Notes: a model not told the origin generated them from the sequence alone. Shown: positions 13,073-62,948, counted from the stretch's first letter. The stretch: 64,000 nt of DNA from a virus (IMGVR_UViG_3300012662_000198:19154-83153), one strand, 5' to 3'. Numbers and translations are program-made.

Positions 13073-13091
13073 TGTGAACTATCCCAGTATA
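13073..13091 (-). promoter_or_regulatory. Plasmid promoter-family motif upstream of ssb
   Basis: TGc-TATACTGGGATAGTTCACA. Confidence 0.75.
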
Positions 13092-13154
13092 GCAGATATT
13101 GTTGCGAGGTCAGGAAAATGTCGTGGGAGATAAGGAACTAGTTGTAAGACATTC

Positions 13155-13497
13155 TCAACGGAATCGACTACTGTTTTTTTCTTCTAACTCCCCAAGCAGT
13201 TCTTCCGTCTCTCGAAGATAATTACGAATGCCCTTCGCGGCAGTCAGTCGAGAGAACAGCTCGTTGTGAGACGATAGTCTGACGGCAATTACCGTGATAG
13301 AAGACCCCGCCACCCTGTACACGAGCAACACGTCCTTACGTACATGCAGTTCCCTGAACCCTTTCCATTGACCAACCAACGCGTGGGCTCGATATTTAGT
13401 ATCCAGAACGTCTCTATCGTTGGACAACAGAGCTTCGAACACCTCATTCAGAGACGACAGGTCGGTATGTCTTTTGCTCAGGCTCTTATAGTCTCTC
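13155..13497 (-). pseudogene. YafQ/RelE-family toxin lacking its N-terminus
   Basis: RDYKSLSKRHTDLSSLNEV...YRAHALVGQWKGFRELHV..DVLLVYR...RLSSHNELF; frame begins at the IS-end palindrome. Confidence 0.8.
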
Positions 13498-13539
13498 GTG
13501 ACATTCTCCCCCGCCTCTACAGGCGGGGGAGAATGTCAC
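13498..13539. repeat. 42-bp palindrome made of two back-to-back IS right ends
   Basis: gtgacattctcccccgcc-tctaca-ggcgggggagaatgtcac; identical to the IS end at 8565-8596. Confidence 0.9.
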
Positions 13540-14119
13540 AGAGTCCGTCAGCACCGACGTGCAGTCCGATGCGGATTGGGGTGGCGTTGAAACGTTGAAC
13601 GTGCCGCAAACCAAATCCCAAGCCGAAAAAGACGCGGAAGCCAAGGCTCGACAGGAGGAGGAGGCCCGCAAGCAGGCTCAGGAGCGGGCGGCACAACAGG
13701 CCCAAGAACAGGCCCTCCGACAGGAGGAGGCCAGTCGAAGCGCGGAACGGACCGACATCAATCCCCCAGTGTCCAAAACCGGACAGGCCGTAGCCGAATA
13801 CGCCATGCAATTCAGTGGATACCCGTACGTGTATGGCGGCAACCAGCCGTCCGGGTGGGATTGCTCCGGCTTCGTCCAATACGTGTTCTCCCAATTCGGT
13901 GCCAGTCTCCCTCATCAGTCGGGTAGTCAAATGAGCGTAGGCTCTCCCGTCTCGTCATTGGCGGAAGCCCAGCCGGGAGACATCCTCGTCAACTCTCATC
14001 ATTCCGCCATTTACATAGGCAACGGCATGGTCATGAACGCCATGAACCCCGTACAGGGCACCCAGATTGCGAGCGTCGCGGTCATGGGTGGCGGTTATTC
14101 GATTAGACGCGTGGTCTGA
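13540..14119 (+). pseudogene. 3' part of an NlpC/P60 (C40) peptidase gene
   Basis: ESVSTDVQSDADWGGVE...YPYVYGG..GWDCSGFVQYV...HHSAIYIG; no start codon or signal peptide of its own. Confidence 0.85.
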
Positions 14120-14174
14120 TGGAAAATACCTTAAGCTGGAAAATATCAACCTCTAATTTGAAAGGCGTCACAAC

Positions 14175-14573
14175 ATGAGCGACCAGAACTACAACCCGCA
14201 ACCATACCAGCCGCAGACCCAACCACAGTACCAGCAACCCCAATACGCACGACCGCAGGCCAACCCTTATATGGCAAACCAACAGTACGCGCAGACCCCG
14301 CAATACGAGCAACAACAGTACATGCAGTACCGGTACGGCCAGCAACCCTACATGGGCCAGCGACCCGCCGACACCGGTTCGTTCGGCTGGGCCGTGTTGG
14401 GGTTCTTCTTCCCCATCGTCGGCCTCATCCTATTCCTCGTCTGGAAGACCGAGAAACCGGTCAGCGCGAAACAGGCGGGCATGGGAGCACTCGTATCTGT
14501 CGTCGCCGCAGTGGTTCTATGGTGTTTGCTTATTGTGTTCGCCGCGATAATCGGTAGCGCCGTCACATACTGA
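14175..14573 (+). CDS. Membrane protein with a Gln/Tyr/Pro-rich N-terminus
   Basis: QPQY repeats followed by two TM segments (GWAVLGFFFPIVGLILFLVW). Confidence 0.75.
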   Translation: MSDQNYNPQPYQPQTQPQYQQPQYARPQANPYMANQQYAQTPQYEQQQYMQYRYGQQPYMGQRPADTGSFGWAVLGFFFPIVGLILFLVWKTEKPVSAKQAGMGALVSVVAAVVLWCLLIVFAAIIGSAVTY

Positions 14574-14756
14574 ATTTGACGTCCTGAACCGTAAAAACCT
14601 GCTATTAGACAAAAACAACCTTGCGATACTTTACGATGAATGTTGGAAGCCGACAGTCGGTTCCTATCCAAAACGAGGATAAAGGATTGGAATAATAGAC
14701 AATTCCGTTTCAATCCTTTCCTTGTTCCCCTAGAAGCAAGGAGAGAAACAGTGACC

Positions 14757-15242: not shown

Positions 15243-15264
15243 AAAAAGGAAGGAACGGTGCATC

Positions 15265-16300: not shown

Positions 16301-16325
16301 CATCGAGGACGCCGAAGTGGGTCTC

Positions 16326-16460: not shown

Positions 16461-16466
16461 GTCAAC

Positions 16467-18522: not shown

Positions 18523-18543
18523 TATAGTGGAATGGTTTGCACA
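18523..18543 (+). promoter_or_regulatory. Plasmid promoter-family motif upstream of the sortase operon
   Basis: TGc-TATAGTGGAATGGTTTGCACA. Confidence 0.7.
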
Positions 18544-18659
18544 AAGGGAATGGCCTTCGACGTAAACAAGAAAACTGTTTCACTCAAAGCCCTCCCCCAA
18601 AGAACAAAACCGTTAAACTGGATATGTCCACAACGCAAACCCGTCAAAGGAACGAAAGC

Positions 18660-19847
18660 ATGGAAAACGGCTCCCCGAACAGTCTGCCCGACTGGGCTGA
18701 AATCATCGACGGCGAACAGGCCAAGCCGGACGACGGTCCCGTCCGCAAAGGCGGACATGGCAAGGGAGGCCACGCACGCCACGGCAAGCGTGCGGCGGAC
18801 AACGTTTCCACCGGCGAACACGTGCTCCAATGCTCCATCGGCATCGTGTTCACCATCGTCATCCTCCTCGTCGCCCAGATAGGATGGATGTTCTACGGGA
18901 ACGACTTGGACTCCATCCACACTCAGATAGCCGACTCGAAGCACGTCAGCCTGAACCGGAACGTGGACTTGGACTCCACGCGGATAGCCCAACCCCAATC
19001 CGGGGAGCCGCCCGTTGACGGCACTTCGACGCACGGTCAGGTAATCGGCTGGATGTACATTCCGAAAATCGAAACCGGTTGGAAGAGGGCCATCCAGCAG
19101 GGTACCGACCAAGTGGTGTTGGACAATCAGGGCATCGGCCACTACGAGCAGACCGTCATGCCGGGGGCCGTGGGCAACAGTGCCTACGCGGGGCACCGCA
19201 CGGGCGGCGACTTGGGTTACGTGGACAGGTTGCAGGCGGGTGACGCCATCGTCATACAGACCGCCGAACACTGGTACGTGTACAGGATGACCGAGGGCTG
19301 GGTCACCGACCCGACCGACGTGGGAGTCCTCGACACGGACGAGTCCGACCCCGACGCCCGCGAACTGACGTTGACGACATGCCACCCTATGAGCGCTTGG
19401 GCCGACGAAAGCGTCAAACACAGGTACATCGTCCGCGCCCGCTTCTCCTATTGGGCGAACGTGTCCGACGGCATCCCCGCCGAACTGAGCACCGCCGACG
19501 CGAACCCGGTCGGGAAGGCCGGATACAAGTGGCAGCAGACCGTCCGCGCCGTCAGCACCTACGCTCCCGCGAGCCTGATGTTCGGCGTGGCGCTGCTCGC
19601 CGCGTGGGCCATCCTGAACGGCCTGTGCTGGCTGCTGTGGCACAAGGACCGCGAGCGCAAGCCGTCGTCGTGGAACGTGCTGGTGTTGTCTTGGCGATTG
19701 CAGCAGGGCGTGTTGCCGTTGCGCGTGTTGAACCTGCTGTTGTTCTGGGGTGGGTTGCTGTTGCTGTTCTGGTGGGGTGTGGGGCCGCGTTTCTGTTCGT
19801 GGTTTCCGTTCCTGCGATGGGTTGGGGTTCCCGCTGTTTCGTTCTGA
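18660..19847 (+). CDS. Class E sortase with a C-terminal membrane domain
   Basis: GNSAYAGHRT, LTLTTCHP and RYIVRA (His-Cys-Arg triad). Confidence 0.9.
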   Translation: MENGSPNSLPDWAEIIDGEQAKPDDGPVRKGGHGKGGHARHGKRAADNVSTGEHVLQCSIGIVFTIVILLVAQIGWMFYGNDLDSIHTQIADSKHVSLNRNVDLDSTRIAQPQSGEPPVDGTSTHGQVIGWMYIPKIETGWKRAIQQGTDQVVLDNQGIGHYEQTVMPGAVGNSAYAGHRTGGDLGYVDRLQAGDAIVIQTAEHWYVYRMTEGWVTDPTDVGVLDTDESDPDARELTLTTCHPMSAWADESVKHRYIVRARFSYWANVSDGIPAELSTADANPVGKAGYKWQQTVRAVSTYAPASLMFGVALLAAWAILNGLCWLLWHKDRERKPSSWNVLVLSWRLQQGVLPLRVLNLLLFWGGLLLLFWWGVGPRFCSWFPFLRWVGVPAVSF

Positions 19848-19901
19848 CCCGGTTTTGGGTTGTGTTTTTTGGTGATTGGTTATTCAAGGAGGTGGCCGTT
19901 T

Positions 19902-21384: not shown

Positions 21385-21452
21385 AATATATATGTTCCGA
21401 TGCTATAGTGGATTCGTTTGCATTGAAGGGGAATCTGAAAATGTCTGACCGG

Positions 21453-21608: not shown

Positions 21609-21650
21609 TTGACGCCACCTCTTTTGCCTGTTATACTGGTAGCGTCCACA
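21609..21650 (+). promoter_or_regulatory. Plasmid promoter-family motif with a canonical -35
   Basis: TTGACG-17 bp-TATACTGGTAGCGTCCACA. Confidence 0.8.
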
Positions 21651-21717: not shown

Positions 21718-22233
21718 TTGGGTATCGAAATCTACGAACAGGACAAGTACGCAACCCACGTCGTCACCAGCAAGGGCGAAATCAAATACGAGTGCAGTGC
21801 CCGCAACGTGGCCGAAGCCATCGTCAAAGAACACAACAAGCATGACAGCGGGGAACCATGGCATGTCGGTACCACCGTCACCTTGGTCAGCGCTAAGAAC
21901 ATCGCATGGCGTGCCGAAGCACTCATCGACTGGGATAAGGTCAAGACCGGCAAGAACACTCCCAACAAGTGCGTGAAGGTCACTGCTTCGGAAACCCAGA
22001 CGAACTTGCAGGAAAGCAAGCCGAAGGTCAGCGCCACCTATCTGTTGTCCGACGGCGACAAGCCGGAAAACTACATGCGTTGGCATGCCACGGCGTCCGA
22101 TAAGGATGTCGCCATGGTGTTGGCGAAACAGGCGGCTGTCAAGGCTTTGGAAGCTTATCTTGAGAAGATTGGCAAGACCGTCAAGACTTCGGTCAAGCCG
22201 ACCGTAAAGCCGTCCGGGAAGGCTGTCAAATGA
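21718..22233 (+). CDS. Hypothetical protein
   Basis: TTG start after RBS agaagga; 171 aa. Confidence 0.6.
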   Translation: MGIEIYEQDKYATHVVTSKGEIKYECSARNVAEAIVKEHNKHDSGEPWHVGTTVTLVSAKNIAWRAEALIDWDKVKTGKNTPNKCVKVTASETQTNLQESKPKVSATYLLSDGDKPENYMRWHATASDKDVAMVLAKQAAVKALEAYLEKIGKTVKTSVKPTVKPSGKAVK

Positions 22234-24975: not shown

Positions 24976-24994
24976 TATAGTGGACGTGTTCACA
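24976..24994 (+). promoter_or_regulatory. Plasmid promoter-family motif
   Basis: TGc-TATAGTGGACGTGTTCACA. Confidence 0.8.
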
Positions 24995-25029: not shown

Positions 25030-25545
25030 ATGGACACGTCCACCACCTTGGAGGAACAGATACAGGCTTTGATGGATTCGCTGGCCGACACCGCACTATC
25101 CGCCGCCGAGTCGCGCCATCAAAGTCAGGCCGGAGAAGCCCACCTGCTGTACGCGCTCTACCGGAACGACGGACTCGTAGGCTCGATGCTTCGAGGCTAC
25201 GGGTTGGAATCCTCTGAAATTCGGCTCCTCATGTCCGATATTCCGAACCGTCCGTTGAAAATGGGAGAAGACCCGGTATTGTCTTATTCCAGCCGTCACA
25301 TATTGCACGATGCCCACGACGCGGTGGAAGTGTTGCGCCACGTGCAACGTGATAGTCATGTCGAACTCCTGCTCCGCGCCCATGGCATCGAACTGCCCGA
25401 ACATCAACCCACTCGGGAGCAGGTCGAGGCGGCGTCAAGAACCGGCGTCAACCTAGCCCAGACCGTCAGCCCCAACCGTGGGCGTCAGGTCGGTGTGGAT
25501 TATCTCTCCTACACTCGGCTCATGCTCGAAGCCGCGTTGAACTGA
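25030..25545 (+). CDS. Clp N-terminal (repeat) domain protein without an ATPase
   Basis: ALSAAESRHQSQAGEAHLLYALYR..GLVGSMLRGYGL and LSYSSRHILHDA resemble Clp_N repeats. Confidence 0.65.
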   Translation: MDTSTTLEEQIQALMDSLADTALSAAESRHQSQAGEAHLLYALYRNDGLVGSMLRGYGLESSEIRLLMSDIPNRPLKMGEDPVLSYSSRHILHDAHDAVEVLRHVQRDSHVELLLRAHGIELPEHQPTREQVEAASRTGVNLAQTVSPNRGRQVGVDYLSYTRLMLEAALN

Positions 25546-27597: not shown

Positions 27598-29340
27598 TTA
27601 AACAATCTTGTTAAGTCCTCCGAATCGGCGGGGGGAATACAGCATACATCCCCGACTCAGCAAGTCACCGACATACTCCATGTCCACTCCACGCTCATTG
27701 AACGCCTTACGAGTGTAGACAAGACGATTCATGTTCGCATGAGACAGCACCCAACGCGCCAGCTCCGCACGTTCTGAATGGTCATTGTCGGCAATCGGCT
27801 TGTTACGTAACACAGCACGTTCCAACAGGTTGCGAAGACTCTTGACCTCAAGGTAATAGTCCGACTTCAACTTGAACATGTACCCATCAGCGTCGTACAC
27901 CACCACGCCTTCACGGTCGGACCAGCGGCGTTCCTCGTCCAACATGTGCCACAGGCTCTCCCGCTGTTCCTCAGTCTGGAAAACAGCCAGAACTTCGGGA
28001 CGGGCAAAGAATCTATCCGTATCAATCAAATCGTCGGCATCATAGTCGATATGGAAGTCAACGGTGTTCTTGATGGCGTGCAGGAACACGAGACGTGACG
28101 TATCGTACTTGATGATATGACGGTCGGAATCTTGGTCGATTACCTCAAAAGCCAAGGTGACGTTGGCGTCATGGGCGATGTTCCACAACGCCTCCTCCTG
28201 ACCAATGTCCAACGTCTGCTTGAAAAGATGTTCGATAAGATACGAATAGTCGGTCTGACCACTCTTCGACCAGAAACGCCAAGAACCATCCTCACACGCG
28301 GACACCAAGCCGAGGAAACCGTTCTCCTTGCGTTCCACGCGCACTGGGAACTTGAGCCGCCTGTCAATGTTCTCCCGAGTGGTCTGCTCGTTCTCCCCAA
28401 GGTTGAAGAACTTCTCGAAACCTCGTGCGACAACCTTACCGTTCCTGTCAAGGAACAGTCCGCGAGCCTTGCTGGAATACTCGTCCCAACGCTGGTTTTT
28501 GAAAGCGTCACGGCTGAAATTGCAAGCGTACACGTCGTTCTCGCCCTTGACCGGACGGACGTTCACGTTATCGGAATCACGCATGAGTTCGAGCAGGTTC
28601 CTTCCATCCGTGGAAAAGTCAGCGAACCTGTCATTGGCCTTATGCGCACCCTGTTCCAACCACTTCAAGTAACGGTCGAGAGTCCACTTCCTACCATCTC
28701 TGAGCGGAGGCGTATCCAACTGGATGACACCGGTCAAATCACGTCCCTTTGCCGGGACTGCGGTATAACCGAACTCGGCATTGTCGGGAACACGGGTCTT
28801 GTCGTTCCACAGCAATCCCACGTCCACCAGCGCAGGGTCTCCGGACGGATTCATATGGTAGGTTCCGTCAACCTTCCTTACATGGATGTTGACCCAACGG
28901 CTTTCATGGTCAAGGTTTTCATGCCAAGTCTCATACTGGGTGCGCAGATATTCCTCCGGCACACGGTCGTTTTCCGGACGGGTCTGGTTGCGTTCCAACA
29001 GAACGTCCAACGGCGTGTTGAATGTGAAAGTCTCAACATGCGCCTTGTGGCGGACGGCAATCTGCACCTCGTCCACGCAGAAACGCGGGTTGACATGCTG
29101 GGAGTCGCTGATGACGTTCACGCCCTTGGAAAGCAGGTCGCTGATGATGGCATGCGCCTGACGGACGAGAATCCTGTTCAACTGTGGATTCATGGTCTCA
29201 TGCCATGCCTGTCGGCCTCCGGCCATCATTTCTCGTAGTCCATCCAAGCTGACGATGACGGTGTTCGCGTCAACATGCTTGCGTGCCCAAGTGCTTTTTC
29301 CGGAGCCGGGTAGTCCTCTGAGAATGGTTATGGTGCTCAA
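27598..29340 (-). CDS. Polynucleotide kinase (AAA_33) - T4 Rnl1-type RNA ligase fusion
   Basis: LRGLPGSGKST P-loop plus SLDGLRE; ligase motifs KARGLF, ARGFEKFFN, KENG, FEVI, EGVV, KLKS. Confidence 0.9.
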   Translation of the reverse strand: MSTITILRGLPGSGKSTWARKHVDANTVIVSLDGLREMMAGGRQAWHETMNPQLNRILVRQAHAIISDLLSKGVNVISDSQHVNPRFCVDEVQIAVRHKAHVETFTFNTPLDVLLERNQTRPENDRVPEEYLRTQYETWHENLDHESRWVNIHVRKVDGTYHMNPSGDPALVDVGLLWNDKTRVPDNAEFGYTAVPAKGRDLTGVIQLDTPPLRDGRKWTLDRYLKWLEQGAHKANDRFADFSTDGRNLLELMRDSDNVNVRPVKGENDVYACNFSRDAFKNQRWDEYSSKARGLFLDRNGKVVARGFEKFFNLGENEQTTRENIDRRLKFPVRVERKENGFLGLVSACEDGSWRFWSKSGQTDYSYLIEHLFKQTLDIGQEEALWNIAHDANVTLAFEVIDQDSDRHIIKYDTSRLVFLHAIKNTVDFHIDYDADDLIDTDRFFARPEVLAVFQTEEQRESLWHMLDEERRWSDREGVVVYDADGYMFKLKSDYYLEVKSLRNLLERAVLRNKPIADNDHSERAELARWVLSHANMNRLVYTRKAFNERGVDMEYVGDLLSRGCMLYSPRRFGGLNKIV

Positions 29341-29373: not shown

Positions 29374-29415
29374 TGTGAACAGTTCCACTATAGGTGATGT
29401 TTGCAAGACATGCAA
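29374..29415 (-). promoter_or_regulatory. Plasmid promoter-family motif for pnk-ligase
   Basis: TTGCAT-17 bp-TATAGTGGAACTGTTCACA. Confidence 0.8.
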
Positions 29416-30277: not shown

Positions 30278-31887
30278 TTGACTTCCTCCCCACGGCTAAA
30301 GCCGGGGGATTCCTGTCGCGTGTAAGACTTTCTCATGTTATAAGAATCTTCCTTCACGTGTAGCAGGGGTTAGCGTTTCATCGGGGCTTGCGTCCGGCAA
30401 GGCTTTCGTCTTGACGGACGGGTGCTCCTCCACGCTTTCGGCACCGTCCATGCCGGTTGTGTGTATCGCGCGGTCGAGAATGTTCTTGGCCGCGTTAGTG
30501 TCCGCATTGTCTGTGAAACCGCAGTTGACGCAGTGGAAGACCGCTTGGCTCTCACGGTTCTCCTTGGCGACATGGCCGCAACGGTTGCAGGTCTGGGACG
30601 TGTACGCCGGGTTGACCAGTATGAGCTGGGTTCCGGCGAGACGAGTCTTGTATTCGAGTTTGTTCTGGATGTCCGCCCAACGGTTGGCGAGGATGCTACG
30701 GTTCAATCCCGCTTTGGCCGCCGAGCCGTTGCGCAGATAATATCCCGGATGGTTGGGGTCCTGTTTCGGTTTCGGCTTGCGGGTCATTTGCCGTGTGTCC
30801 AACGCTTCCAAGGCGATGAGGTCGCAGTCTTCGACCAGTCGGGTCGTGGTCTTGTTGACCCAATCGTCCTTGCGGTTGTTGATGCGACGGCGTATCGAAC
30901 TCATGCGCTTCAATGTGAGTTTGCGTCGTTTCGACTGGAATTTCGCGGTTTTCCCACCACGTCGGCTGTTGGTCATGTCTTGTCGGGCGAGCTTGCGTTG
31001 CAGACGCAGATACTCTCGCCTCTCCCGTTCGGATGGTTGCGGCATGTCCAGCATGGTTCCGTTCGACAAGGCCAATGTGTGGACGCAGCCACGGTCGATA
31101 CCGGTCTGCTTGCCGGTGGTATTCCGTCGGATGGGCGACGGCTCGTTGGTGAACGCCAGAGTGCGTTCCGTCCAATTCACCGCCACGCTCGTGTACTCCC
31201 TGACGGGTTGGCTGACGCGCACGTGGATGGAGAGCATCCAACGGCATCCCGTTTCGTCCGGCTTGCGGAATTCCTTTTTCACGGTTCCGGTGATTACGAC
31301 CACGCCGCGCTTGCGTGACACCTGATGGTAGACGGCGTTGCCGGTCTTGTTCTGGTTGCGCCAGCATACGAAATACTGGGGGTTGCGTTTGCGGGACTTG
31401 AACCCCGGAACACGACCGCCATTAATCTTCTTGCGCTTCAATCCGGCATACCATTCCGAATTCTCCACGCGCATGGGACTGGCGAGAATAGCGGAGGGGA
31501 TGCACGCGAGCCAAGAACACCTGATTCGAGCCTCGCTGTCCTTGAACGGCTCCCCGACGGTCGAGCCGCCCAAGGGAACGTCCACCCACATGCGCTCACG
31601 GGATTCCACGTCCTCCATGTAGCGGCGGATTGTCCGATGCTCCCGATGCTGGTTGAAACGGGTACGCCAACCATCGCACAGCCAGTCCATGATGCGCTCG
31701 GGATTGCGCGTCCAACAGTGGTTGCGGCATGAATCGTCGCCAAGGTACACGGACGCGCCCGCATGCCTGACTTTGATGATTCGTACCTTATGGCTCATAC
31801 TATAAGCCTTACCACGGAAACAGTGATTAATCAAAGAAGTGGCGGCTTACCCCAGTCTTAAAAGACGGGGCTTGCGCCTCCAATTCG
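30278..31887 (-). mobile_element. tnpB-only IS200/IS605-family element
   Basis: Target TTGAC (31888-31892); left-end hairpin ccccgtcttttaagactgggg; right end gaatcccccggctttagccgtggggaggaagTCAA. Confidence 0.85.
30338..31798 (-). CDS. tnpB: TnpB with an atypical N-terminus
   Basis: RuvC GIDRG, LEAL and NADTNAAKNI motifs; CNRCGH/CVNCG zinc finger; N-terminus lacks the usual HTH_OrfB pattern. Confidence 0.85.
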   Translation of the reverse strand: MSHKVRIIKVRHAGASVYLGDDSCRNHCWTRNPERIMDWLCDGWRTRFNQHREHRTIRRYMEDVESRERMWVDVPLGGSTVGEPFKDSEARIRCSWLACIPSAILASPMRVENSEWYAGLKRKKINGGRVPGFKSRKRNPQYFVCWRNQNKTGNAVYHQVSRKRGVVVITGTVKKEFRKPDETGCRWMLSIHVRVSQPVREYTSVAVNWTERTLAFTNEPSPIRRNTTGKQTGIDRGCVHTLALSNGTMLDMPQPSERERREYLRLQRKLARQDMTNSRRGGKTAKFQSKRRKLTLKRMSSIRRRINNRKDDWVNKTTTRLVEDCDLIALEALDTRQMTRKPKPKQDPNHPGYYLRNGSAAKAGLNRSILANRWADIQNKLEYKTRLAGTQLILVNPAYTSQTCNRCGHVAKENRESQAVFHCVNCGFTDNADTNAAKNILDRAIHTTGMDGAESVEEHPSVKTKALPDASPDETLTPATREGRFL

Positions 31888-31901: not shown

Positions 31902-31943
31902 TGTGAACACTTCCAGTATATCATATTTGTTCGATTATGCCAA
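31902..31943 (-). promoter_or_regulatory. Plasmid promoter-family motif reading into the IS left end
   Basis: TTGGCA-17 bp-TATACTGGAAGTGTTCACA. Confidence 0.8.
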
Positions 31944-31994: not shown

Positions 31995-32399
31995 TCAGTC
32001 AACCAGACGATTCACAAACGGGGTACCATGCCCGTCCAGCATTAGGAATTCGAGCGGGTAGAAACGCTTCTTCCAATACTCCAACTGCTCGTCACTCAGG
32101 CTTTCGTTGTCACCGGTATTGGGATTAAATCCTGTGACCACGAATGTGTGGGAGATTAAATCCACAAGGGCGTTTTCGTCCCCTCCCTCGCAGACGTCGC
32201 CGACCACAATCGCGCGATTGAACTGCCAACGTCCGATTTTGCCCTCCTCGTTGCAGTAGAGGGTGGCATTTCCTTTGAGGTAGACCGGCTCAATATAACC
32301 GCCCACTTCATCCTGCAATGCCTTGAGGGTGTTGGGGATGGCCTTGACCAAAGGGTGTTCCCCTGCCTTGACTACGAGGACTTCGATGGTGTCGCTCAT
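31995..32399 (-). CDS. DUF3846-like protein
   Basis: VLVVKAGEHP..NTLKALQDEVGGYIE...YCNEEGK. Confidence 0.75.
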   Translation of the reverse strand: MSDTIEVLVVKAGEHPLVKAIPNTLKALQDEVGGYIEPVYLKGNATLYCNEEGKIGRWQFNRAIVVGDVCEGGDENALVDLISHTFVVTGFNPNTGDNESLSDEQLEYWKKRFYPLEFLMLDGHGTPFVNRLVD

Positions 32400-32816
32400 T
32401 TTCTGCTCCTTTTCAGGGGATAGGTTTTGCAACCATTTGTTTGTGCGAACAATTCCAGTATATCACGTTTTAAATAAAAGGCAAAATCCTGCGAAACCAA
32501 CAACCAACAAACGCCCACAATACCATGGAAAATACTAAAAACCTCCACCACAAGAAAGGGACCAACCTTGGAAACCAAGGAATTCGAAATCTTCTGCAAA
32601 GAAGTAAAAGGCAACGAAGGCAACAAATGCCACTACCCCACACGCTTGGACACCTACGGATGCGGATGCCCGTCCAATCGAACGACTGTTGCAATCTACG
32701 ACGGACAAGCATGCCGCCGTTGGGAACGGCAAATGGTGGGTTTCGCAAAACCATAAAAGCAGAGTAAGGGAAAAAGCCCGACGATATGTGATTATCGTCG
32801 GACTTTTCTATACTTA

Positions 32817-33077: not shown

Positions 33078-33221
33078 GGTTTTGGTTCACTTTCTTGCGA
33101 TTCTCACGCCAGACCGCCACGGTATCGGTTATGAACGCTATCGCCATGACCAGCAGAATCATTGCCAACGAAACCAGTATAACAGCTAAACTAATCGCGA
33201 CCACCCAGTTCAACACAGTTT

Positions 33222-34142: not shown

Positions 34143-34337
34143 GTTATCTCCTTTTTCGACAGTGGTATCTTCATGTGAACAAAGCCAGTATAGCATAGTG
34201 TTTATGGTTTGGGCAAACCGCAAATGTAGCCAAAACCACAATTAAGCGACACTTAAGACGATAAGTGTCGCTTAACAAAAAAGAAGCCCCGGCAATCCCC
34301 CGAAAAGAAAACTGCCGGGGCTTCCACTCAAATACAA

Positions 34338-37608: not shown

Positions 37609-37823
37609 TTTGGCTCCTTTTTTCGTCATGTCTTTATGTGAACAATCTCAGTATAACACATGCTGTGGAGTGGGTCAATCCAACGAAGCCAACTCCATCT
37701 CAATCCCAGCCAACTCCTCCAACAAACGCTTACGACGAGCCACCAGCAGACTCTTCCTACGAGCACCCGCGAACACAGGATGCCTTTTCTTGGTCTGTTT
37801 GCATGAACGATTCAAGTATGCCT

Positions 37824-37874
37824 CTTATGTGTTGCGCCGTAAAACCTCCGACTTTAGTCGGGGGAGAAAGTCAA
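37824..37874. mobile_element. Solo IS200/IS605 end
   Basis: ttatgtgttgcgccgtaaaacctccgactttagtcggggggagaaaGTCAA. Confidence 0.7.
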
Positions 37875-37920: not shown

Positions 37921-37939
37921 TATACTGGATACGTCCACA
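37921..37939 (+). promoter_or_regulatory. Plasmid promoter-family motif upstream of tracrRNA/cas9
   Basis: TATACTGGATACGTCCACA inside the fold-back gcatggttt/aaaccaagc. Confidence 0.7.
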
Positions 37940-42798: not shown

Positions 42799-44694
42799 AG
42801 TAGAAGGAAGTAATAATACGGCAGTCTTCCAATCCTACGCCGACTTTGCCCCCATTGCAGTCAAGTAGAAGGAAGTAATAATACGGCAGTCTTCCAATCA
42901 AGGCTTCAAAACGACTTTCGTTACCGAAGTAGAAGGAAGTAATAATACGGCAGTCTTCCAATCGTCGCTCGCATGGATACTAACTGGCCTAAGTAGAAGG
43001 AAGTAATAATACGGCAGTCTTCCAATCCTGCACGACAATTCCGTCGTCGCATCTTTAGTAGAAGGAAGTAATAATACGGCAGTCTTCCAATCCGGCAACC
43101 TCTGTAGCTGTAGTAAAAAAAGTAGAAGGAAGTAATAATACGGCAGTCTTCCAATCCGTACGCTCAGGCGGCTGAAACGCCGTCAGTAGAAGGAAGTAAT
43201 AATACGGCAGTCTTCCAATCACACATCGCCGACGACCTTGCAACTGCTAGTAGAAGGAAGTAATAATACGGCAGTCTTCCAATCAACTGGCACAACCAGC
43301 CAGAATCGTTGGAGTAGAAGGAAGTAATAATACGGCAGTCTTCCAATCAACTACGCCACAGACGGCAGTGAACTAGAGTAGAAGGAAGTAATAATACGGC
43401 AGTCTTCCAATCGCACTCCTTTTATGCCACGGTCGGGGTGAGTAGAAGGAAGTAATAATACGGCAGTCTTCCAATCGGTCGAACTGGGCATGTACGGCGA
43501 GGTGAGTAGAAGGAAGTAATAATACGGCAGTCTTCCAATCAAAGTGGCACAACCAGCCAGAATCGTTGGAGTAGAAGGAAGTAATAATACGGCAGTCTTC
43601 CAATCCTTACTCCAAGGTGCTTGGCCATTTCGGAGTAGAAGGAAGTAATAATACGGCAGTCTTCCAATCAAATAGAAGAGGAGATGCAGCAATGAAAAGT
43701 AGAAGGAAGTAATAATACGGCAGTCTTCCAATCAGGTCACTGTCTTTCCATCCCAGTCGGCAGTAGAAGGAAGTAATAATACGGCAGTCTTCCAATCCCT
43801 ACGTTCACCATCCGAAATGGGTAGAAGTAGAAGGAAGTAATAATACGGCAGTCTTCCAATCTCGGGAGCTAGTGCCCTACACCCGTTCCAGTAGAAGGAA
43901 GTAATAATACGGCAGTCTTCCAATCCCTGCCTACTCTGGGAGAAGGGTGGAGAAGTAGAAGGAAGTAATAATACGGCAGTCTTCCAATCAGATGCGGTTC
44001 AGGGCGTTGTCGGCTTCAGTAGAAGGAAGTAATAATACGGCAGTCTTCCAATCACGTTGCGCGGAGGGTATGGAAGTGCAGGAGTAGAAGGAAGTAATAA
44101 TACGGCAGTCTTCCAATCACGAATCCTAATTGGACGGCGCAGGCTAAGTAGAAGGAAGTAATAATACGGCAGTCTTCCAATCTCGTAGATACGGCTACCG
44201 CGTATGCGAAAGTAGAAGGAAGTAATAATACGGCAGTCTTCCAATCTCCTGCTTGAATCCGTCAGCACTGTAGGAGTAGAAGGAAGTAATAATACGGCAG
44301 TCTTCCAATCTAACGTTTCGCCATTTTCTGGTTTTCAGAGTAGAAGGAAGTAATAATACGGCAGTCTTCCAATCGATACCCGACGTTTGCGCGTACGAGA
44401 GCAGTAGAAGGAAGTAATAATACGGCAGTCTTCCAATCTTAACTCTACGTGCGGACGCTGGTCGGGAGTAGAAGGAAGTAATAATACGGCAGTCTTCCAA
44501 TCCAGTATTCCAGAAGGAACGTGGCGAGAAAGTAGAAGGAAGTAATAATACGGCAGTCTTCCAATCTGCTCCGCCGACTGTCCGACCGTCCACGGGTAAG
44601 AGGAAGTATAAATACGGCAGTCTTCCAATCTATAGCCGGTTTCCCTTTTACCGTCTTCGGTAAGAGGAAGTATAAATACGGCAGTCTTCCAATC
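42799..44694 (-). CRISPR. Type II-C array: 30 repeats of 36 bp and 29 spacers of 28-29 bp
   Basis: Plus-strand repeat agtagaaggaagtaataatacggcagtcttccaatc x28 plus 2 variant repeats at 44595 and 44659; crRNA strand is minus, judged from tracrRNA pairing. Confidence 0.98.
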
Positions 44695-45009
44695 CCAATA
44701 AAGGATAAGCCGGTGTTTCGCCACTCCCACCGGCGAGGAGCTGTTCACACAAAGATGCGAGGTAAGGAGAGGGCCATGAGAAGTTGCCCATAAACCCCGC
44801 TTTTTGTTTGGCGTTTGACATGGCTTGGTTTTTTCCCATCAGTGAGCTTATGTCGTGAACACTGGCAGGTATGCGTGAGTACAGGGTGCAAGGCATACTG
44901 GCTTGCTGACAATCCATCATGGATTTCCGGATTGTCGTCCATCGCGCATGTGAGAGTCATGCCATGGATTGTCCCACTGGCTTCGGGGTATGAGAAGTGT
45001 GGGACTTTG

Positions 45010-45116
45010 TGCGGAAGGCGAGATTCGAACTCGCAATATTTGCTTGCAAGATAAAGCAGAAAGAAGAATCAATACGGCAAATATTTCCATCGTGATAATC
45101 TTTTCACTACTTCCGC
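45010..45116 (-). ncRNA. tRNA-like RNA with an expanded central arm
   Basis: Acceptor GCGGAAG/CTTCCGC, D-stem GTGA/TCAC and T-arm GCGAG-TTCGAAT-CTCGC; 56 nt between the D and T arms. Confidence 0.6.
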
Positions 45117-48147: not shown

Positions 48148-48188
48148 TGTGAACACTGCCAGTATAGCAGTTCTAGGAAACATGTCAA
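48148..48188 (-). promoter_or_regulatory. Plasmid promoter-family motif heading the tmRNA/tRNA cluster
   Basis: TTGACA-16 bp-(TGc)TATACTGGCAGTGTTCACA. Confidence 0.75.
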
Positions 48189-48297: not shown

Positions 48298-48570
48298 ATG
48301 CAGTCCAAGCAGATACGAGAAGACGTCACAGTCGCATATATAGAAGACCAGCTCAAATCGGAAGACCCCATGCTCATCCAGTCGGCCACGGGAAACCTAG
48401 CCAGACTGTACGGGATGACGACATTATCCCAATTGACGGGATTAGCCAGACCATCCCTCTACCGGAGTCTATGCGAGCAAGGGAACCCGTCCTTCCAAAC
48501 CATGTGCCGCGTGTTGGACGCGATGGGATACACGGTGTCAATACGACGCAAGGAGACCTCCGATGAGTGA
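48298..48570 (+). CDS. HTH protein of the addiction-module antidote (HI1420) type
   Basis: GMTTLSQLTGLARPSLYRSL...GNPSFQTMCRVLDAMG; overlaps the repA start. Confidence 0.8.
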   Translation: MQSKQIREDVTVAYIEDQLKSEDPMLIQSATGNLARLYGMTTLSQLTGLARPSLYRSLCEQGNPSFQTMCRVLDAMGYTVSIRRKETSDE

Positions 48571-49618
48571 CGTACGAGCGGAACAGGACGTTCTCGAACT
48601 TGGCTCCACTGGAATGGAATTGGACGTCAGACGTGTTAACCTGCTGGACGATATAGAAGCCCGAGAGCCGAACAGTATGGAAATCTGGTACGGTCACTCC
48701 ATTCTCACGGCAACATTGTTTCCACCTGCCCAACCGTCAGACGACGTGGATTTCGTCAGCAAAACGAACGGACGTTTGGAATACATGCTCGAAGCGGGCG
48801 TGACCGGTGATGGTGGTGACCGTAAACGCCGGTTCCCGTTCGGCAAGTATCCGAGACTGTTGATGGCTTGGATGGCGAAGCAGATTCGTGCGGCGAAAGG
48901 TCATAAGACCAAGAATGTTGACCCTGATACGAAAACCATCACCATTCCAAGCATCTACCAGTTGTGTGAGGAGATGGGATTGCCGCATGGCGGCCGTACC
49001 GCGAAAAGCGTGCAGGAACAGTTGGAACTGTTGTTGGCCTGTCGTATCAGCATTCGAGCTTCCGGCACGGGCAAAGGGTTGAACGTGCGGGATACGGCTT
49101 ATCTGCCTATCGTTCAGGCTGTCCGTATCATCAATGACGAGAAGAACGTCGGCTATTCCGGTGCGACGTTCCGTCTGACCGATGAAGTGTATGAGAGGTT
49201 GAGCCGTGAGTCGGCACCGTTTGACACGAGGGTGTCAACCTACCTGTTGAAGGGCCGGTCAGTCATGCCTTACGACATTTACATTTGGCTGACGGGCAGT
49301 ATGAAGAATCTTCGACATGACCTTCCGGTGAGTTGGGATTGGCTGTATGAGAGGTTCGGAGACCAGATTGCCGTCAAGAAGTCTTTCCGGCGCATGTTCC
49401 GTCAATCGTTGGAAAAGGTCAAGAAGGTTTATCCGGGTTTGAATGTGGAGTGTCCGACTTATGAGGATTATATTATCCTGCATCCGAGTCCGACTTCCGT
49501 TCCTTCCCGTGCCGTCCGTGACGCGGAGGTTGCGGCGACTGATGGCGTTTTTGATGTGGCGATTCGCTCGTTGACCACGGCTCAACGGAATGGTGTTCGA
49601 AAAGCCATGACCAAGTGA
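48563..49618 (+). CDS. repA: Plasmid replication initiator RepA
   Basis: FPFGKYPRLLMAW, SAPFD, YDIYIWL, VSWDWLYERFG, FRRMFRQSLEKVKKVYP. Confidence 0.9.
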   Translation: MSDVRAEQDVLELGSTGMELDVRRVNLLDDIEAREPNSMEIWYGHSILTATLFPPAQPSDDVDFVSKTNGRLEYMLEAGVTGDGGDRKRRFPFGKYPRLLMAWMAKQIRAAKGHKTKNVDPDTKTITIPSIYQLCEEMGLPHGGRTAKSVQEQLELLLACRISIRASGTGKGLNVRDTAYLPIVQAVRIINDEKNVGYSGATFRLTDEVYERLSRESAPFDTRVSTYLLKGRSVMPYDIYIWLTGSMKNLRHDLPVSWDWLYERFGDQIAVKKSFRRMFRQSLEKVKKVYPGLNVECPTYEDYIILHPSPTSVPSRAVRDAEVAATDGVFDVAIRSLTTAQRNGVRKAMTK

Positions 49619-51546: not shown

Positions 51547-52833
51547 ATGAGCACGTACAGGCGATACAACTATCGCGCATACCCCACGCAGGGTCAGCGC
51601 GAATCGTTGTCATGCCTGTTCGGCGCGTGCAGGTACGCCTACAATTGGACGCTTGACCAGCGCGAGTCCATGCGCCGCCGACACGGGCGGATGCAGTCGT
51701 ATTCGCAATTGAGTGGCATGTTCACCCTGTGGAAGCGGGAACCCGGAATGGAATGGCTCACCTCCGTGTCGTCCACGCCGTTGCAACAGGCAATACGACA
51801 CGCGGACTCGGCGTACCGGAATTTCTTCCGCCTGTACAAGGCGGGTAAGACCCGTGTCGCGACCAATCATCACACCGGGAAAAAGCATCGCACGGGACTG
51901 CCCCGCTATAAGAGCCGTAGGGACGGAGAGCAATCGGCCGAGTTCACCAAATCCGCCCGCTTCAGAATCGAACATGCCGACGGATGCAAGTGGTGGTTCC
52001 TCTCGTTGCCGAAAATCGGACGCGTCAAACTCCGTTGGACAAGAAACCTCCCGTCCAAACCATCCACCGTCACCATCATGAAACACGCGGACGGAACCTA
52101 TGAGGCGAGCTTCACCGTACAAGCGGAACCCGAGGCCAACGTCCCGAAGCCAGTCCACGACGCGTGCGGAGTGGATATGGGTCTCGAATACCTCATGAGC
52201 ATCGTCTACACGGACGGCACACGGGAGAAGATACCCCACCCGCACACGCTAAAACACAAGGCCCGCAGACTACGCAAGATTGACAAGAAACTGGCCCGAA
52301 CGAAGAAAGGCTCACACAACAATGCGAAGACAAGAATCCTGAAAGCCAAGACCTACGGGCGAATCCGAAACCAACGCAAGGACATGGCGTACAAGCTGGC
52401 ATCCAAAGTGGCGGGCGAGAACCAAGCCGTCGCATTGGAGACGTTGAACGTCAAAGGACTCGCACGCACCCGTATGGCGAAAAGCCTGTTGGATGCGGAT
52501 TGGACCCGAATCATCGACCGGATACGGCAATTGGGCATCCAGTATGGAAGAACCATCGTCCAGATAGACCGCTGGTATCCCAGCAGTCAAATCTGCTCAC
52601 AATGCGGACGCAGGGACGGCAGGAAGCCGTTAAGCGTACGCGAATGGGATTGCCCCCAATGCGGTGCGCGGCTCGACCGAGACTGGAACGCCGCATTGAA
52701 CATACTCGACGCGGCAGGACTTGCCGAGTCGCTAAACGCCTGTGGAGGCGACGTAAGACGGAGGCTGGCGCAAGCCGACCGCAACGCGGACGCCAGTGAA
52801 ACAGGAACCCACCGAACTGCACGGCTTCATTAA
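51547..52833 (+). CDS. tnpB: TnpB RNA-guided endonuclease
   Basis: YNYRAYPT..FGACRYAYN; GVDMG, LETL and DRDWNAALNI motifs; zinc finger. Confidence 0.95.
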   Translation: MSTYRRYNYRAYPTQGQRESLSCLFGACRYAYNWTLDQRESMRRRHGRMQSYSQLSGMFTLWKREPGMEWLTSVSSTPLQQAIRHADSAYRNFFRLYKAGKTRVATNHHTGKKHRTGLPRYKSRRDGEQSAEFTKSARFRIEHADGCKWWFLSLPKIGRVKLRWTRNLPSKPSTVTIMKHADGTYEASFTVQAEPEANVPKPVHDACGVDMGLEYLMSIVYTDGTREKIPHPHTLKHKARRLRKIDKKLARTKKGSHNNAKTRILKAKTYGRIRNQRKDMAYKLASKVAGENQAVALETLNVKGLARTRMAKSLLDADWTRIIDRIRQLGIQYGRTIVQIDRWYPSSQICSQCGRRDGRKPLSVREWDCPQCGARLDRDWNAALNILDAAGLAESLNACGGDVRRRLAQADRNADASETGTHRTARLH

Positions 52834-57926: not shown

Positions 57927-57980
57927 CGTTTTCCTCCTAAAGAATGCTTATGTGTGGACTCCCCCAGTATAGCAGAGTTT

Positions 57981-58262: not shown

Positions 58263-58267
58263 CTCTC

Positions 58268-58813: not shown

Positions 58814-58877
58814 CGGTTGTCCTTCACTCTTGTATGATGTGAATGTTTCCAGTATAGCAGGGGGAACGGTAGAAACG

Positions 58878-59827
58878 TCAGCAGTTAGTGACCTTGACCT
58901 TGTTATGCGCAAGAATAGACTCGAACAGTCGGAGTGGATTGCGGGAGTCCAGCTTGTACTGATGGTGATTCCGCGCGGTTTCCGTTTCGAGAAATCGTCC
59001 GCTCTTGGATGGCCCCTCGACAATCATGGGAATCCAGCGCCATTTCTCGCACCCCTTGCTGTTCTCCCAAACAATTTCCCCAGTGTCCAAGACGCGCTTG
59101 TATGCGGTCTTGTCGGGGAAGGACGAGTCTATTCGTGCTACCAGATTCAGTCTGCTCAAGGTTGGATTCCTCCTTCTTCCAGTTCCTTATAGTCCTGCGG
59201 GTTCAGGAAGAGCCAAGCGCCGCAGTAGGGGCATTTGACTCTGTTTTCGGCATCGACGGTGTTCTTGCAGTACCAGCAGGTGATATACCATTCCTCTACT
59301 TGTTGGTTTTGCATTTCCCCTCCTTTTTCTTGGCAAAGAAGTCGATGACTTCGATGAGATAGAGGAACATTTCAAGCAGGACAAAGAACACGAATCCCAG
59401 TACGTCAAAAGTCCAGTTTTTCAGTTTTTTGAATATGTTGGACATTGCTCTCCTTGTCTTGATAGGTTGTGTGAACAACCTCAGTATAACCCAAAAAAGC
59501 AAGACTGGCAATCACACCAAAAACCGGAAAACAAACAGGCTAATAGTTATTCCGAATCGCATTCAATACAAGCCGGGGGCGTATCTTCGGGCAACATCAG
59601 CGGCTTACTTTCTCGCTCTGATTTGGCACTTCCAACGGCATGGAACCCGAATATCCCAACAGCTCCTCGCAATGAGCGGCGACGGCTTGCAACGCGAACC
59701 GTTCTCCTGTTAGAAAGCCTTCATCCGACGCGTTGGGAATCTTTTCATCGATTCGGGCTACATGCTTTTCGCACCAGTCGATTACGTCGTTCAAGGTCTT
59801 GTCCTTCTGTGTGACGTTCACTGCCAT
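58878..59827 (-). CDS. Three small hypothetical ORFs (58878-59159, 59187-59445, 59597-59827)
   Basis: RBS-led ORFs; promoter motif at 59470 with -35 TTGCCA. Confidence 0.5.
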
Positions 59828-59918
59828 GTGAGTTGCCTTTCTGTTTTAACGGGGCAAAAATCGTTGTTTTTGCGAAAAAGACCCCGTTAAAACGCTTTTC
59901 TTTGGTTTAATTGTCTTT

Positions 59919-60224: not shown

Positions 60225-60925
60225 TCGTGTTCCGACACCATTCAGCGGTCTTGTCGAACTGGTCTTTCAGCCACATGAGCCGGTCGGTGCGCGGCATGGG
60301 CGCGGACAGCAGGCGGGACAGCTCGGCCAATGCCTGTTCCTCACCCATGTCGGCCGTATTGAGGACGGTGTTATCCTCGACTAGCTCGTACTGAGTTCGG
60401 ATGATGCGGATGGTGTCGCGGTCGGGAAGGTTGACGATAATCTCGTATCGTGCTTGGGGGTCGTACGCGGTGATGCGTCCGAATTGGAGGTCGTTGCCCA
60501 CATGCCAGTCCGGCAGTGTGTGGGCAACGGTGTTGAAGACGTTACGTGTTTTCATTATGTCAGTTCCATTCCTTCGGGGCGACAACAATCCAGCCGTTTG
60601 ACAGCGGGTATACTTCGCAGGGTTCGTCCGAGTCCAAATCGTCGTCCAACGGGTTCCAGTCTTCGAGACCGTCGTGGGCGATTTCGTCGTTGAGTGCCCC
60701 GCTGTGGATGCGTTCGGTTTCAACGTGGACGTCCTCTGAGGGGAGGAATAGGAACGAGAATGGTTCGAGCATTGGTTCGAAAAGATACGGCAGTCCGTCC
60801 TCGGCTCCCCAGTTGGCGACCATGTTCATGTGTCGTCCGTCATCCGTTTCCACGAGGATTATTCCCTATTCCTGTCCAGTGAGGTCGTGCAGGTTGATGG
60901 TCATGTTTTTCTCCTTGGTTTTAAC

Positions 60926-61423
60926 TTTTTGTGTGAACAATTCCAGTATAAGCTATGTTAAACCAAAAGTCAACCCAGAAAAACAGGGGCATAGTCCACC
61001 CAAGCAGACCATGCCCCAAAACCCAAAAACTCACCGACCAGCCAAGGCGATGGAACGAACCATAGAATCCAGCCTTGTGCTCCCCACCGATTGAGTCACA
61101 TAGTAGCTGTCGTTGTCGAGGTCAAGCCAGTAGACGACCTCGTTCTTGTCCTTATGGTACTCAGAGAAGATATAGCGTTCATCCGGCTCGCTTTTTGGAG
61201 ACGATTCCTTATGCTCGTCGTAGATGTGCTTCCAGTGCTCTTTCGTCAGCTTATTATGTCGAATACACAGCAGAGCGGTGTCATCATCGCTCCAGAATTC
61301 CAGTTCGACATCAAACGGCTGGATGGTGTCGCTGATATTCATAGGGGTTCTCCTTTTTTGCGTGGCCTGTTCGGCCTTTTTGTGTGAACAATTCCAGTAT
61401 AAGCTATGTTAAACCAAAAGTCA
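60926..61423. repeat. 47-bp identical direct repeats (60926-60972, 61377-61423) flanking one gene
   Basis: tttttgtgtgaacaattccagtataagctatgttaaaccaaaagtca x2. Confidence 0.95.
61031..61342 (-). CDS. Hypothetical protein (cassette between the 47-bp repeats)
   Basis: RBS aaaggag; 103 aa. Confidence 0.7.
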   Translation of the reverse strand: MNISDTIQPFDVELEFWSDDDTALLCIRHNKLTKEHWKHIYDEHKESSPKSEPDERYIFSEYHKDKNEVVYWLDLDNDSYYVTQSVGSTRLDSMVRSIALAGR

Positions 61424-61879
61424 TCAAATCATGAGAGCGAGAACACGCCTATCCCCCGCCTCAGCGTCCTTTAGATAGCAACGATGACGGTCGGGTTCCC
61501 CGTCCATCGCATAATCATCCCTGACCTCGAACTCTTCCAAGGAACCTTCGTTGTCACCATAGTAGGCGAACACGATAGGAGTGTCACCGCCAAGGGTTCC
61601 ACGTGCGTAGCGCAGTGTGGAAATCATCTGGTCGATGGTGGCGGGCGTGGTGAACACTTTCTGTCTCAGGTCTTCCTCAAGCTCGCATTCGCAGTCGGGG
61701 CAAACCTTCTTCAAACCATTGGAGGCGTCCGTCATATGTTGCGGGCAGTTGATGGCTCCGCACCGGTCGCAGATGGCTCGGCAGTTCTTGCAGATGTGCC
61801 TTCCGCAGGTTTCGCAAAGGGTGAGCTGGGTGAAGGGGTCAACGTTTCCGCAGTTGACGCATTTGATGCCGTCGTTCAT
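61424..61879 (-). CDS. Zinc-finger-rich hypothetical protein
   Basis: Four CxxC pairs; promoter motif at 61921. Confidence 0.65.
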   Translation of the reverse strand: MNDGIKCVNCGNVDPFTQLTLCETCGRHICKNCRAICDRCGAINCPQHMTDASNGLKKVCPDCECELEEDLRQKVFTTPATIDQMISTLRYARGTLGGDTPIVFAYYGDNEGSLEEFEVRDDYAMDGEPDRHRCYLKDAEAGDRRVLALMI

Positions 61880-62172
61880 TTTTTCTCCTTTGTTGGTGGG
61901 TTTTTTCAACCCTTCGTTTGTGTGGACGATTCCAGTATACATCTTTGGGAGAACGACACTCCCACATTCACACCGTTGGCAATGGTTTCCGCAATCTCGG
62001 CAAGAGCGTATTGCAGACCGTTTGTACTGACGTGGGCAACGCCAAGTCGTGGCTTAGGGGAATGTATGGTAGCGCCCAGAAAGGCGAAACTGCTTGTTAA
62101 TCCCTAAAAAACAGGAAGGCCGGAATCTCCAAGGGAAGAAAAACCTTGAGCTTTCCGGCCTTCCTGTTTTTT

Positions 62173-62703
62173 TCAGTCGTTGTGGTCTTCCGTGGAACCG
62201 TATACCGCTTCCTTCATATCCATCGGGTGAGCGTATTCGTAGGTGCTGATTTTCACATAGGCTTCGCCATCCCTGTTGGCGAGAACACGATGGCTGGTGG
62301 CCTTGCCCGCGAAGCGGGTCGGGCTTGTCAGGTCGGGGTAGACGGTGCATCCGGCGATGTCGTTGGGGCTTCCATCATAATTCTTGCGGAGTGGGCGGAT
62401 TTGCACGGTCTTGCCACTGGGGCTGACCTTGACCACTTCGTAGTAGCTGTTGAGAATCATGTCGTAGCCGTAGACGGAGTGGAGCACGTCTCCCACTTTG
62501 AGGGTTCCCACCGCCTTGGTGTTGTCCTTGCGGGATTCTTCGCCTTTGATTTTGAAGTCTTCGAGCGTGTAACCGTTATAATCCATGACTTTTTGGCGGA
62601 AGTTTTCAAGCCCACGCATGGTCTTCCAAGTACGACGGTAGGTGCCTTGGTAGGTGCGTTCGCCTTGGCTGTTCTTAGTCCAAAGTTCAAGGCTGAGCAT
62701 TTT
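62173..62703 (-). CDS. Hypothetical protein
   Basis: RBS aaaggag; promoter motif at 62735. Confidence 0.7.
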   Translation of the reverse strand, partial: KMLSLELWTKNSQGERTYQGTYRRTWKTMRGLENFRQKVMDYNGYTLEDFKIKGEESRKDNTKAVGTLKVGDVLHSVYGYDMILNSYYEVVKVSPSGKTVQIRPLRKNYDGSPNDIAGCTVYPDLTSPTRFAGKATSHRVLANRDGEAYVKISTYEYAHPMDMKEAVYGSTEDHND

Positions 62704-62948
62704 GGTTCTCCTTTTTGTTTGCGGTCTTCGTTTGTGCGAACGATTCCAGTATACCACATGCGAGAACAGACAAAAAACGGTGAGTCGGAACTTTTTAACT
62801 ATGATTCAGCCACAAGGGTTTAGAAATCTTTTCTTCTCGCCCTCAAATAGGACTTAATCGTTTTACGGGGTACTTCTCTGTTAGAAAACAGCACATCGTG
62901 ACTGTTAAGTCTGACTAACACCAAAGAGACCACATCGTTGTCCACGTA

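Follow-up and report, generated by a model that had tools for sequence, protein, structure and literature searches.

Conjugative plasmids of the pMP7017 family, of about 200 kb, are widespread in gut Bifidobacterium, and their cargo includes adhesins, CRISPR-Cas systems, tRNAs, a tmRNA and Sec components. The transcription of pMP7017 has been analyzed by RNA sequencing (RNA-seq), and a 34-bp promoter motif was described, for which 19 promoters were published, 13 of them being further copies found beyond the first set (Dineen et al. 2024, Microb Biotechnol 17:e14405; PMC10832533). The motif was predicted to drive 56 genes, or 24% of the coding capacity, that were named the "pMP7017-specific regulon", and it was judged "likely a transcription factor binding site"; it precedes comparable genes in homologous plasmids, and the bifidobacterial chromosomes are devoid of it (PMC10832533). 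In the later papers that were searched we found no report naming a binder of this motif. In this work we analyzed a family of promoters carried by IMGVR_UViG_3300012662_000198 (G000), an 83-kb record that IMG/VR labels as a virus, with an estimated completeness of 38%; the window, to which the coordinates refer unless stated otherwise, is the stretch of 64,000 nucleotides (nt) that covers positions 19154-83153 of this record. Each promoter joins a −10 element to a conserved box, and the initial annotation of the window had proposed that the flanks pair into a hairpin with this sequence exposed in its loop. We conclude that the motif is a rediscovery, in a distant member of the family, of the motif published for pMP7017.

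Dispersed control sites with some of these features are known from other elements. In the IncP plasmid RK2, the KorA operators, which are palindromes of 12 bp to which a known repressor binds as a dimer, lie over the −10 region of several promoters of the kor regulon. The promoters of G000 resemble them in that many promoters, dispersed over the plasmid, have their −10 region covered by a plasmid-private sequence, which suggests a plasmid-wide coordination; they differ in that the box is asymmetric, extends from −6 to +12 and is present in 25-45 copies. The stoperators of cluster A mycobacteriophages (the sites of L5 gp71) are likewise asymmetric, short, present in dozens of copies, oriented with transcription and specific to the element; however, they are also found inside operons away from promoters, whereas the box is enriched only in a fixed register with the −10. 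In the Frpo promoters, the stem of a long hairpin rebuilds a duplex −35 and −10 on one strand only, and on conjugative plasmids early genes such as ssb have been proposed as targets both of these promoters and of the ones studied here; in contrast, the −35 and −10 elements of G000 have a normal duplex arrangement, occur on both strands and give no hairpin signal. The early promoters of coliphages T5 and T4 are used by the host sigma factor, and their conservation past +1 contributes to promoter strength, a feature shared with our promoters; these belong to phages and not to plasmids, and the sequences are unrelated.

Results and discussion

The motif in a divergent member of the pMP7017 family

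No match to G000 was obtained among 50,697 phage records, and in the plasmid collection its DNA matched (megablast) solely megaplasmids of Bifidobacterium longum and B. breve, pMP7017 included. Homologues in pMP7017 were found for 26 of the 79 predicted proteins, with identities of about 41-47% (median 41%); these comprise the RepA-type initiator (58%), both giant repeat adhesins, the sortase, and the products of ssb, secE and secG. Two near-complete relatives, G001 and G004, have 67 of the 79 proteins in common with G000, at ~77% identity. Judged by these homologies, G000 belongs, as a divergent member, to the pMP7017 family of conjugative megaplasmids of Bifidobacterium; the jumbo phage implied by the IMG/VR label is ruled out by the zero phage matches together with the homology to pMP7017, and the reading of the replicon as a plasmid, already given in the initial annotation, is borne out. 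The protein homology to pMP7017 points to a megaplasmid of the conjugative type, and not to a phage, for G001 and G004 as well as for G000, and this comparison of plasmid and phage gene content covers only these three among the motif-bearing IMG/VR contigs.

The sequence TATASTGGNNNNGTTCACA has eight exact matches in the window and none in shuffled sequences; when up to 2 mismatches are allowed there are 21 copies, against 0.09 expected, and the whole 83-kb record contains 25. All 19 positions listed in the initial annotation were recovered among the 21, together with two additional copies at 18614 (+) and 33163 (−). The pattern given there fits 8 of the 19 positions exactly, and the other 11 have one or two mismatches. 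As to its two partial copies, the one at 37803 is a decayed motif, and the site at 44737 holds the downstream box only, there being no −10.

By the present count pMP7017 carries 24 copies in the same register, and these precede ssb, the RNA-gene cluster beside repA, the sortase gene, the secE/secG operon, the type I-E cas genes and many orphans. The published motif is a block that overlaps a TATACT −10, has a box of the GTCCACA type downstream and is found within ~60 bp ahead of translation starts. The motifs of both plasmids have in common the TATACT −10, the 6-nt register to the GTYCACA box, the run of A that follows and the place before start codons; both are plasmid-specific, and the kinds of genes also correspond (ssb, the tmRNA/tRNA cluster, sortase, the secE/secG region and CRISPR-Cas). 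The version of G000 is GGAATT-GTTCACA-C, whereas that of pMP7017 is GAATAT-GTCCACA-T and has an upstream A-rich extension absent from G000.

Distribution in related plasmids and in chromosomes

An exact-match scan of IMG/VR revealed 116 stretches with the motif, many of them on contigs of 100-217 kb with several copies apiece. In five contigs of 190-217 kb a full count at up to 1 mismatch gave 33-45 copies each, and the reversed control had none; near-complete relatives of G000 thereby have 33-45 copies versus the 24 (present count) or 19 (published) of pMP7017. The promoter class is conserved across members with only ~45% protein identity. It offers a clean diagnostic, in that many 'viral' contigs of 100-217 kb in IMG/VR bear the promoter class of the pMP7017 family. 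CheckV assigns a completeness of 88-100% to some of these contigs.

The presumed host genus is Bifidobacterium, deduced from an insertion sequence shared with a 2.0-Mb genome. Among 151 genomes of this genus, 143 have no copy, seven have one and one has 32; the rate is ~0.05 per genome over 150 genomes. In 301 genomes of one actinobacterial order there were 3 matches, against 2 in the reversed control, and among the matches listed for species-representative genomes only single chance matches were found. The motif is near-absent from the host chromosomes (zero in 143 of 151 genomes) and so plasmid-private. In G323, a species-representative genome of the presumed host genus, all of the 32-39 copies lie on two contigs (G323:C4 and G323:C23; 103 and 178 kb); the version of this third plasmid is TATACTG(T/A)AATTGTCCACAC, and the TGn of the extended −10 is mostly missing.

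Architecture of the promoters

The aligned copies give T.TG.TATACTGGAAtTGTTCACAcAAAa, preceded by a weak TTG 17 bp upstream, and the conservation ends at about −36 and +15. In the G000 record a TGn extended −10 is present in 17 of the 25 copies, TTGnnn at 16-18 bp in 10, and either of them in 20, and the copies without TGn (e.g. 29374, 59470 and 60932) have a good −35 hexamer at 17 bp. Across the plasmids 78-88% of the motif copies have TGn or a −35, against 10-19% of control TATAST hexamers in three other plasmids; the control of G000 itself reaches 47%, since motif variants remain in the control set. In 109 of 113 composite matches from four plasmids, precisely 6 nt separate the hexamer from GTYCACA, and given that the box begins exactly 6 nt past TATACT, its G is probably the transcription start (+1). 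All 25 copies lie between genes and point in the direction of the gene that follows; 17 of them sit 20-80 nt before the start codon, ahead of which there is a ribosome binding site of the AAGGAG type. These promoters therefore have what is found in promoters of the housekeeping sigma factor, i.e. a TAnnnT −10 together with TGn or TTGnnn at 16-18 bp, oriented to a gene, and the features named in the initial annotation hold for the set. The anatomy, the register and the orientation to the genes argue for conventional duplex promoters of the housekeeping sigma with a sharply bounded private extension.

The flanks of separate copies are unrelated (27-28% identity), and recent segmental duplication is ruled out as the source of the promoters. 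Between orthologous promoters the core is 89-93% identical, versus 79-83% for the adjacent flanks. Outside the composite motif the 7-mer box shows no enrichment. A −10-like pause element within the box, and a −35-like element within the box serving a second promoter, were considered and discarded, as neither is kept between lineages.

The copies in the window and the genes that follow them are these:

13073..13091 (−), exact motif promoter, 22 nt before ssb (12475-13050)
18523..18541 (+), motif promoter with 2 mismatches and GTTTGCA, upstream of the sortase gene
18614..18632 (+), additional copy with TAAACT and GTCCACA, 27 nt before the sortase gene (18660-19847)
21404..21422 (+), motif promoter with 2 mismatches
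21632..21650 (+), motif promoter with GTCCACA, 67 nt before an orphan gene (21718-22233)
24976..24994 (+), exact motif promoter, 35 nt before a gene with a Clp_N domain (25030-25545)
29374..29392 (−), exact motif promoter without TGn, with a TTGCAT −35 at 17 bp, before the Pnk-RNA ligase gene (27598-29340)
31902..31920 (−), exact motif promoter, 103 nt before a TnpB gene (30338-31798)
32444..32462 (−), motif promoter with GTTCGCA, before a DUF3846 gene (31995-32399)
33163..33181 (−), weak copy with GTTGGCA and 2 mismatches, doubtful as a promoter
34174..34192 (−), exact motif promoter, before an orphan gene (33543-34142)
37637..37655 (−), motif promoter, before an orphan gene (37153-37608) followed by a tRNA-Arg and an 865-aa gene
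37803..37826 (−), decayed partial copy, CATACTTGAATCGTTCATGCAAAC
37921..37939 (+), motif promoter with GTCCACA, 195 nt before cas9 (38135-41461)
44743..44753 (+), downstream box only, GTTCACACAAA, without a −10, adjoining the CRISPR array and syntenic in G001 and G004
48148..48166 (−), exact motif promoter, heading the tmRNA and tRNA cluster and divergent from the RepA homologue (48563-49618)
57953..57971 (−), motif promoter with GTCCACA, heading an operon that continues to secE
58838..58856 (−), motif promoter with ATTCACA
59470..59488 (−), motif promoter without TGn, with a TTGCCA −35 at 17 bp
60932..60950 (−), exact motif promoter with a TTGACT −35 at 17 bp, the sole copy with two-part flank complementarity (9 + 10 bp)
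61383..61401 (−), exact motif promoter, with 26 nt upstream in common with 60932
61921..61939 (−), motif promoter with GTCCACA
62735..62753 (−), motif promoter with GTTCGCA

The plasmid-wide set described at the outset, with ssb, the pnk-ligase gene, the tmRNA/tRNA cluster and the cas9 region, is borne out by this list, and it is the counterpart of the published pMP7017-specific regulon. A Pfam search on 20 genes placed after or near motif promoters returned mostly orphans, and no regulator was found among them.

No hairpin signal in the flanks of the motif

The initial annotation suggested a new architecture, in which the flanks pair across the motif and leave the −10 and +1 in the loop, so that the promoter would sense single-stranded DNA (ssDNA) or a cruciform during establishment of the plasmid, or the stem would silence read-through transcripts. 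The four complementarities quoted in its support, at 60932, 29374 and 59470, are present in the sequence, and the regulon includes ssb and orphan methyltransferases, which are typical genes of leading regions. However, as a class the true flank pairs of the window are no better than swapped ones: the duplex energy is −15.2 kcal/mol for true upstream/downstream pairs and −15.5 kcal/mol for swapped pairs (p = 0.65), and both sets reach a best Watson-Crick run of 5.9 (p = 0.40). When 120-nt ssDNA segments of 20 sites were folded and compared with shuffles, z ranged from −1.82 to +1.60 with a mean of −0.11, none being below −2, which also speaks against a structured single strand. Folding no better than that of shuffles was the outcome by which, according to the initial annotation itself, its model would be refuted. 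Of the chimeric flank pairs, 70-78% still fold with at least 6 pairs spanning the motif, and for this reason the appearance of a stem reflects composition: it is produced by the T-rich upstream sequence facing the A-rich leader, plus tracts like the Shine-Dalgarno sequence on both sides. A small excess of flank pairing was detected in G001 (p 0.0004) and G004 (p 0.03), a result that would favor the hairpin; nonetheless it stems from three sites in each plasmid, at which a polypyrimidine tract on the upstream side and the purine-rich Shine-Dalgarno leader are reverse complements of each other. The promoter at 61383, a paralogue of that at 60932, has the same upstream arm with an unrelated downstream arm.

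The layout of the copies leads to the same result. The numbers of forward and reverse copies in the near-complete relatives are 30/12, 14/24 and 13/26, and in G001, G002, G004, G005 and pMP7017 the copies are spread plasmid-wide on both strands, as judged without a located origin of transfer (oriT). This argues against an ssDNA promoter, which needs one orientation relative to the transferred strand. Regarding the Frpo type, no stem rebuilds a duplex −35/−10, since both elements lie on one side with normal spacing, and the copies do not share one orientation within a leading region. A single-stranded loop holding the −10 and +1 has no complementary template strand to copy, and a loop of 25-30 nt disfavors cruciform extrusion. 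In addition, the published RNA-seq places motif promoters among the top-expressed units of the established plasmid in log phase (PMC10832533). With the duplex energy, Watson-Crick run, chimera and fold tests, a hairpin or cruciform across the motif is ruled out for the class, and the loop-presentation model with its sensing or silencing roles is very improbable. That these are promoters of double-stranded DNA, with no hairpin involved, we consider highly likely.

Lineage-specific versions of the box and its possible reader

Base-by-base logos of five plasmids align at T-12, A-11, T-10, A-9, T-7, G-6, G+1, T+2, C+4, A+5, C+6 and A+7, each conserved at ~90-100%, and three other positions vary with the lineage:

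Position −5: G (90%) in this lineage; A (69%) in pMP7017; A or T, and no G, in the third plasmid, G323
Position +3: T (70%) in this lineage; C (100%) in pMP7017; C (97%) in G323
Position +8: mixed in this lineage; T (100%) in pMP7017; C (94%) in G323

These lineage-specific versions, as they appear in the logos, are what this analysis adds as new. One and the same host polymerase is expected throughout the genus, yet the versions are fixed by lineage, which points either to a reader encoded by the plasmid and co-evolving with the box, or to homogenization among the copies.

In our reading the motif is an ordinary duplex promoter for the host housekeeping sigma, with a near-consensus −10 (TATACT or TATAGT) accompanied by TGn or by TTGnnn at ~17 bp, and this −10 is fused in rigid register to a private box from −6 to about +12 (G, G/A/T, AAT, Y, G+1 T Y C A C A, Y, AAA). 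Roughly 25-45 transcription units per plasmid are headed by this class, which is a hallmark of the pMP7017 family. A trans-acting factor encoded by the plasmid may dock on the box, act on RNA polymerase at the promoter and coordinate a regulon across the plasmid; such a factor is suggested by the lineage-specific versions of the box, which are maintained in spite of a single genus and the same polymerase. Whether or not a plasmid-encoded factor reads the box seems to us evenly balanced, and the explanation as a whole, i.e. duplex promoters of the housekeeping sigma with a private box docked by a trans factor of the plasmid, has in our opinion a slightly better than even chance of being correct. 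A private promoter code for each megaplasmid lineage, in which the plasmid factor would read the box from −6 to +12 in register and co-evolve with it, is put forward more tentatively, as somewhat less than an even prospect. Given that one promoter class heads a large share of the genes, whatever reads this class would be the master switch of the plasmid, and a private code, if true, would give the plasmid a phage-like control over at least a quarter of its genes, independent of host regulators. The added value is modest: the class reaches a distant lineage, its register is rigid, and the lineage versions are a concrete test for a plasmid-encoded reader.

Several observations weigh against this explanation. 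Six motif promoters of pMP7017 are among the most highly expressed units in log phase (PMC10832533), and such a high steady-state expression is more easily reconciled with an intrinsically strong promoter, or with an activator, than with a tight repressor. The start site itself was deduced only from the spacing and the published RNA-seq boundaries. No Sigma70_r2 domain (PF04542) was detected in G000, G001, G002, G004 or pMP7017, positive controls being matched, so a plasmid-encoded sigma factor of the type of SigN of pBS32 is discarded as the reader in these five plasmids. A WhiB protein is present only in pMP7017, which excludes it as a universal reader, and the search yielded no reader protein. 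The box is asymmetric; its only dyad, TGGA-N4-TYCA, is weak and misses the best-conserved CACA, and a palindromic operator was rejected on these grounds. Lastly, gene conversion, or the copying of a master promoter, could also have produced the lineage versions.

Some of these observations are expected if the motif is a self-sufficient strong core promoter, the box being a discriminator plus an initial transcribed sequence tuned for the host RNA polymerase (a stable open complex with easy escape), without a dedicated plasmid factor, and the class having spread within the plasmids by copying. In E. coli the optimal discriminator for sigma70 is GGGA, and the near-consensus extended −10 with G at −6/−5 is similar to it; the rigid register (109 of 113), the box without free-standing sites, the high expression in log phase and the lack of a sigma factor in five plasmids are also in agreement with this possibility. 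In contrast, it does not account for a fixed T or C at +8, nor for the lineage-specific +3 and −5, under the polymerase of the same genus; strong host promoters have not converged on the motif, as ~150 chromosomes of the genus are essentially without it, and the flanks bear no trace of recent copying. We regard this alternative as rather unlikely, though well worth keeping in mind beside the trans-acting factor.

A different possibility is that the element acts at the RNA level, so that G+1 UYCACAYAAA would be a shared 5' end of the mRNAs with a role in stability, in translation (as an unstructured, CA/A-rich standby site), in processing or in base pairing to an RNA of the plasmid. Besides the −10, the strongest conservation is found from +4 to +7, and the variants are almost all transitions. 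Furthermore, pMP7017 has three perfect 11-nt boxes, GTCCACATAAA, without a −10 (at 60373, 107051 and 147846; ~0.09 expected), one of which lies inside an operon 30 nt before a start codon, and a box-only copy stands beside the CRISPR array in G000, G001 and G004. Nevertheless, the conservation extends to the untranscribed part (G-6 at 93-100%, and the lineage-specific −5 to −1), the 7-mer has no general excess beyond promoters, no partner RNA was found, and the leaders gave no Rfam match. A role of this kind is improbable as the explanation of the motif.

With regard to the trans-acting factor, a lead comes from a pair of genes ~14 kb before the window (L282:4252-5075, minus strand), which encode a 125-aa helix-turn-helix (HTH) protein and a 124-aa ImmA/IrrE-like peptidase with a HEXXH motif. 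The pair is present in all four plasmids compared, G000, G001, G004 and pMP7017 (RS00140/RS00145), and a conserved variant of the motif, CATACTGG....ATTCACA, lies ahead of it in this lineage. This pair is the only candidate for a plasmid protein that would bind the box, as in a repressor regulon of the KorA or ImmR type, and a candidate for the master regulator module, as a lead only.

Other features of the window

The CRISPR array lies at 44300-44700 and is read on the minus strand, with 36-bp repeats (GATTGGAAGACTGCCGTAT...). Beside it, the 11 nt at 44743-44753 are perfectly complementary to the 5' leader that the mRNAs share, and a decayed copy of the motif is found nearby at ~44850-44870 (−). 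At 45010-45116 (−) a tRNA-like gene of 107 nt was called by Rfam (42.7 bits) but not by ARAGORN, perhaps a tRNA that contains a long insertion. TnpB genes of the IS200/IS605 type are located at 8671-9864 (−), 30338-31798 (−) and 51718-52833 (+).

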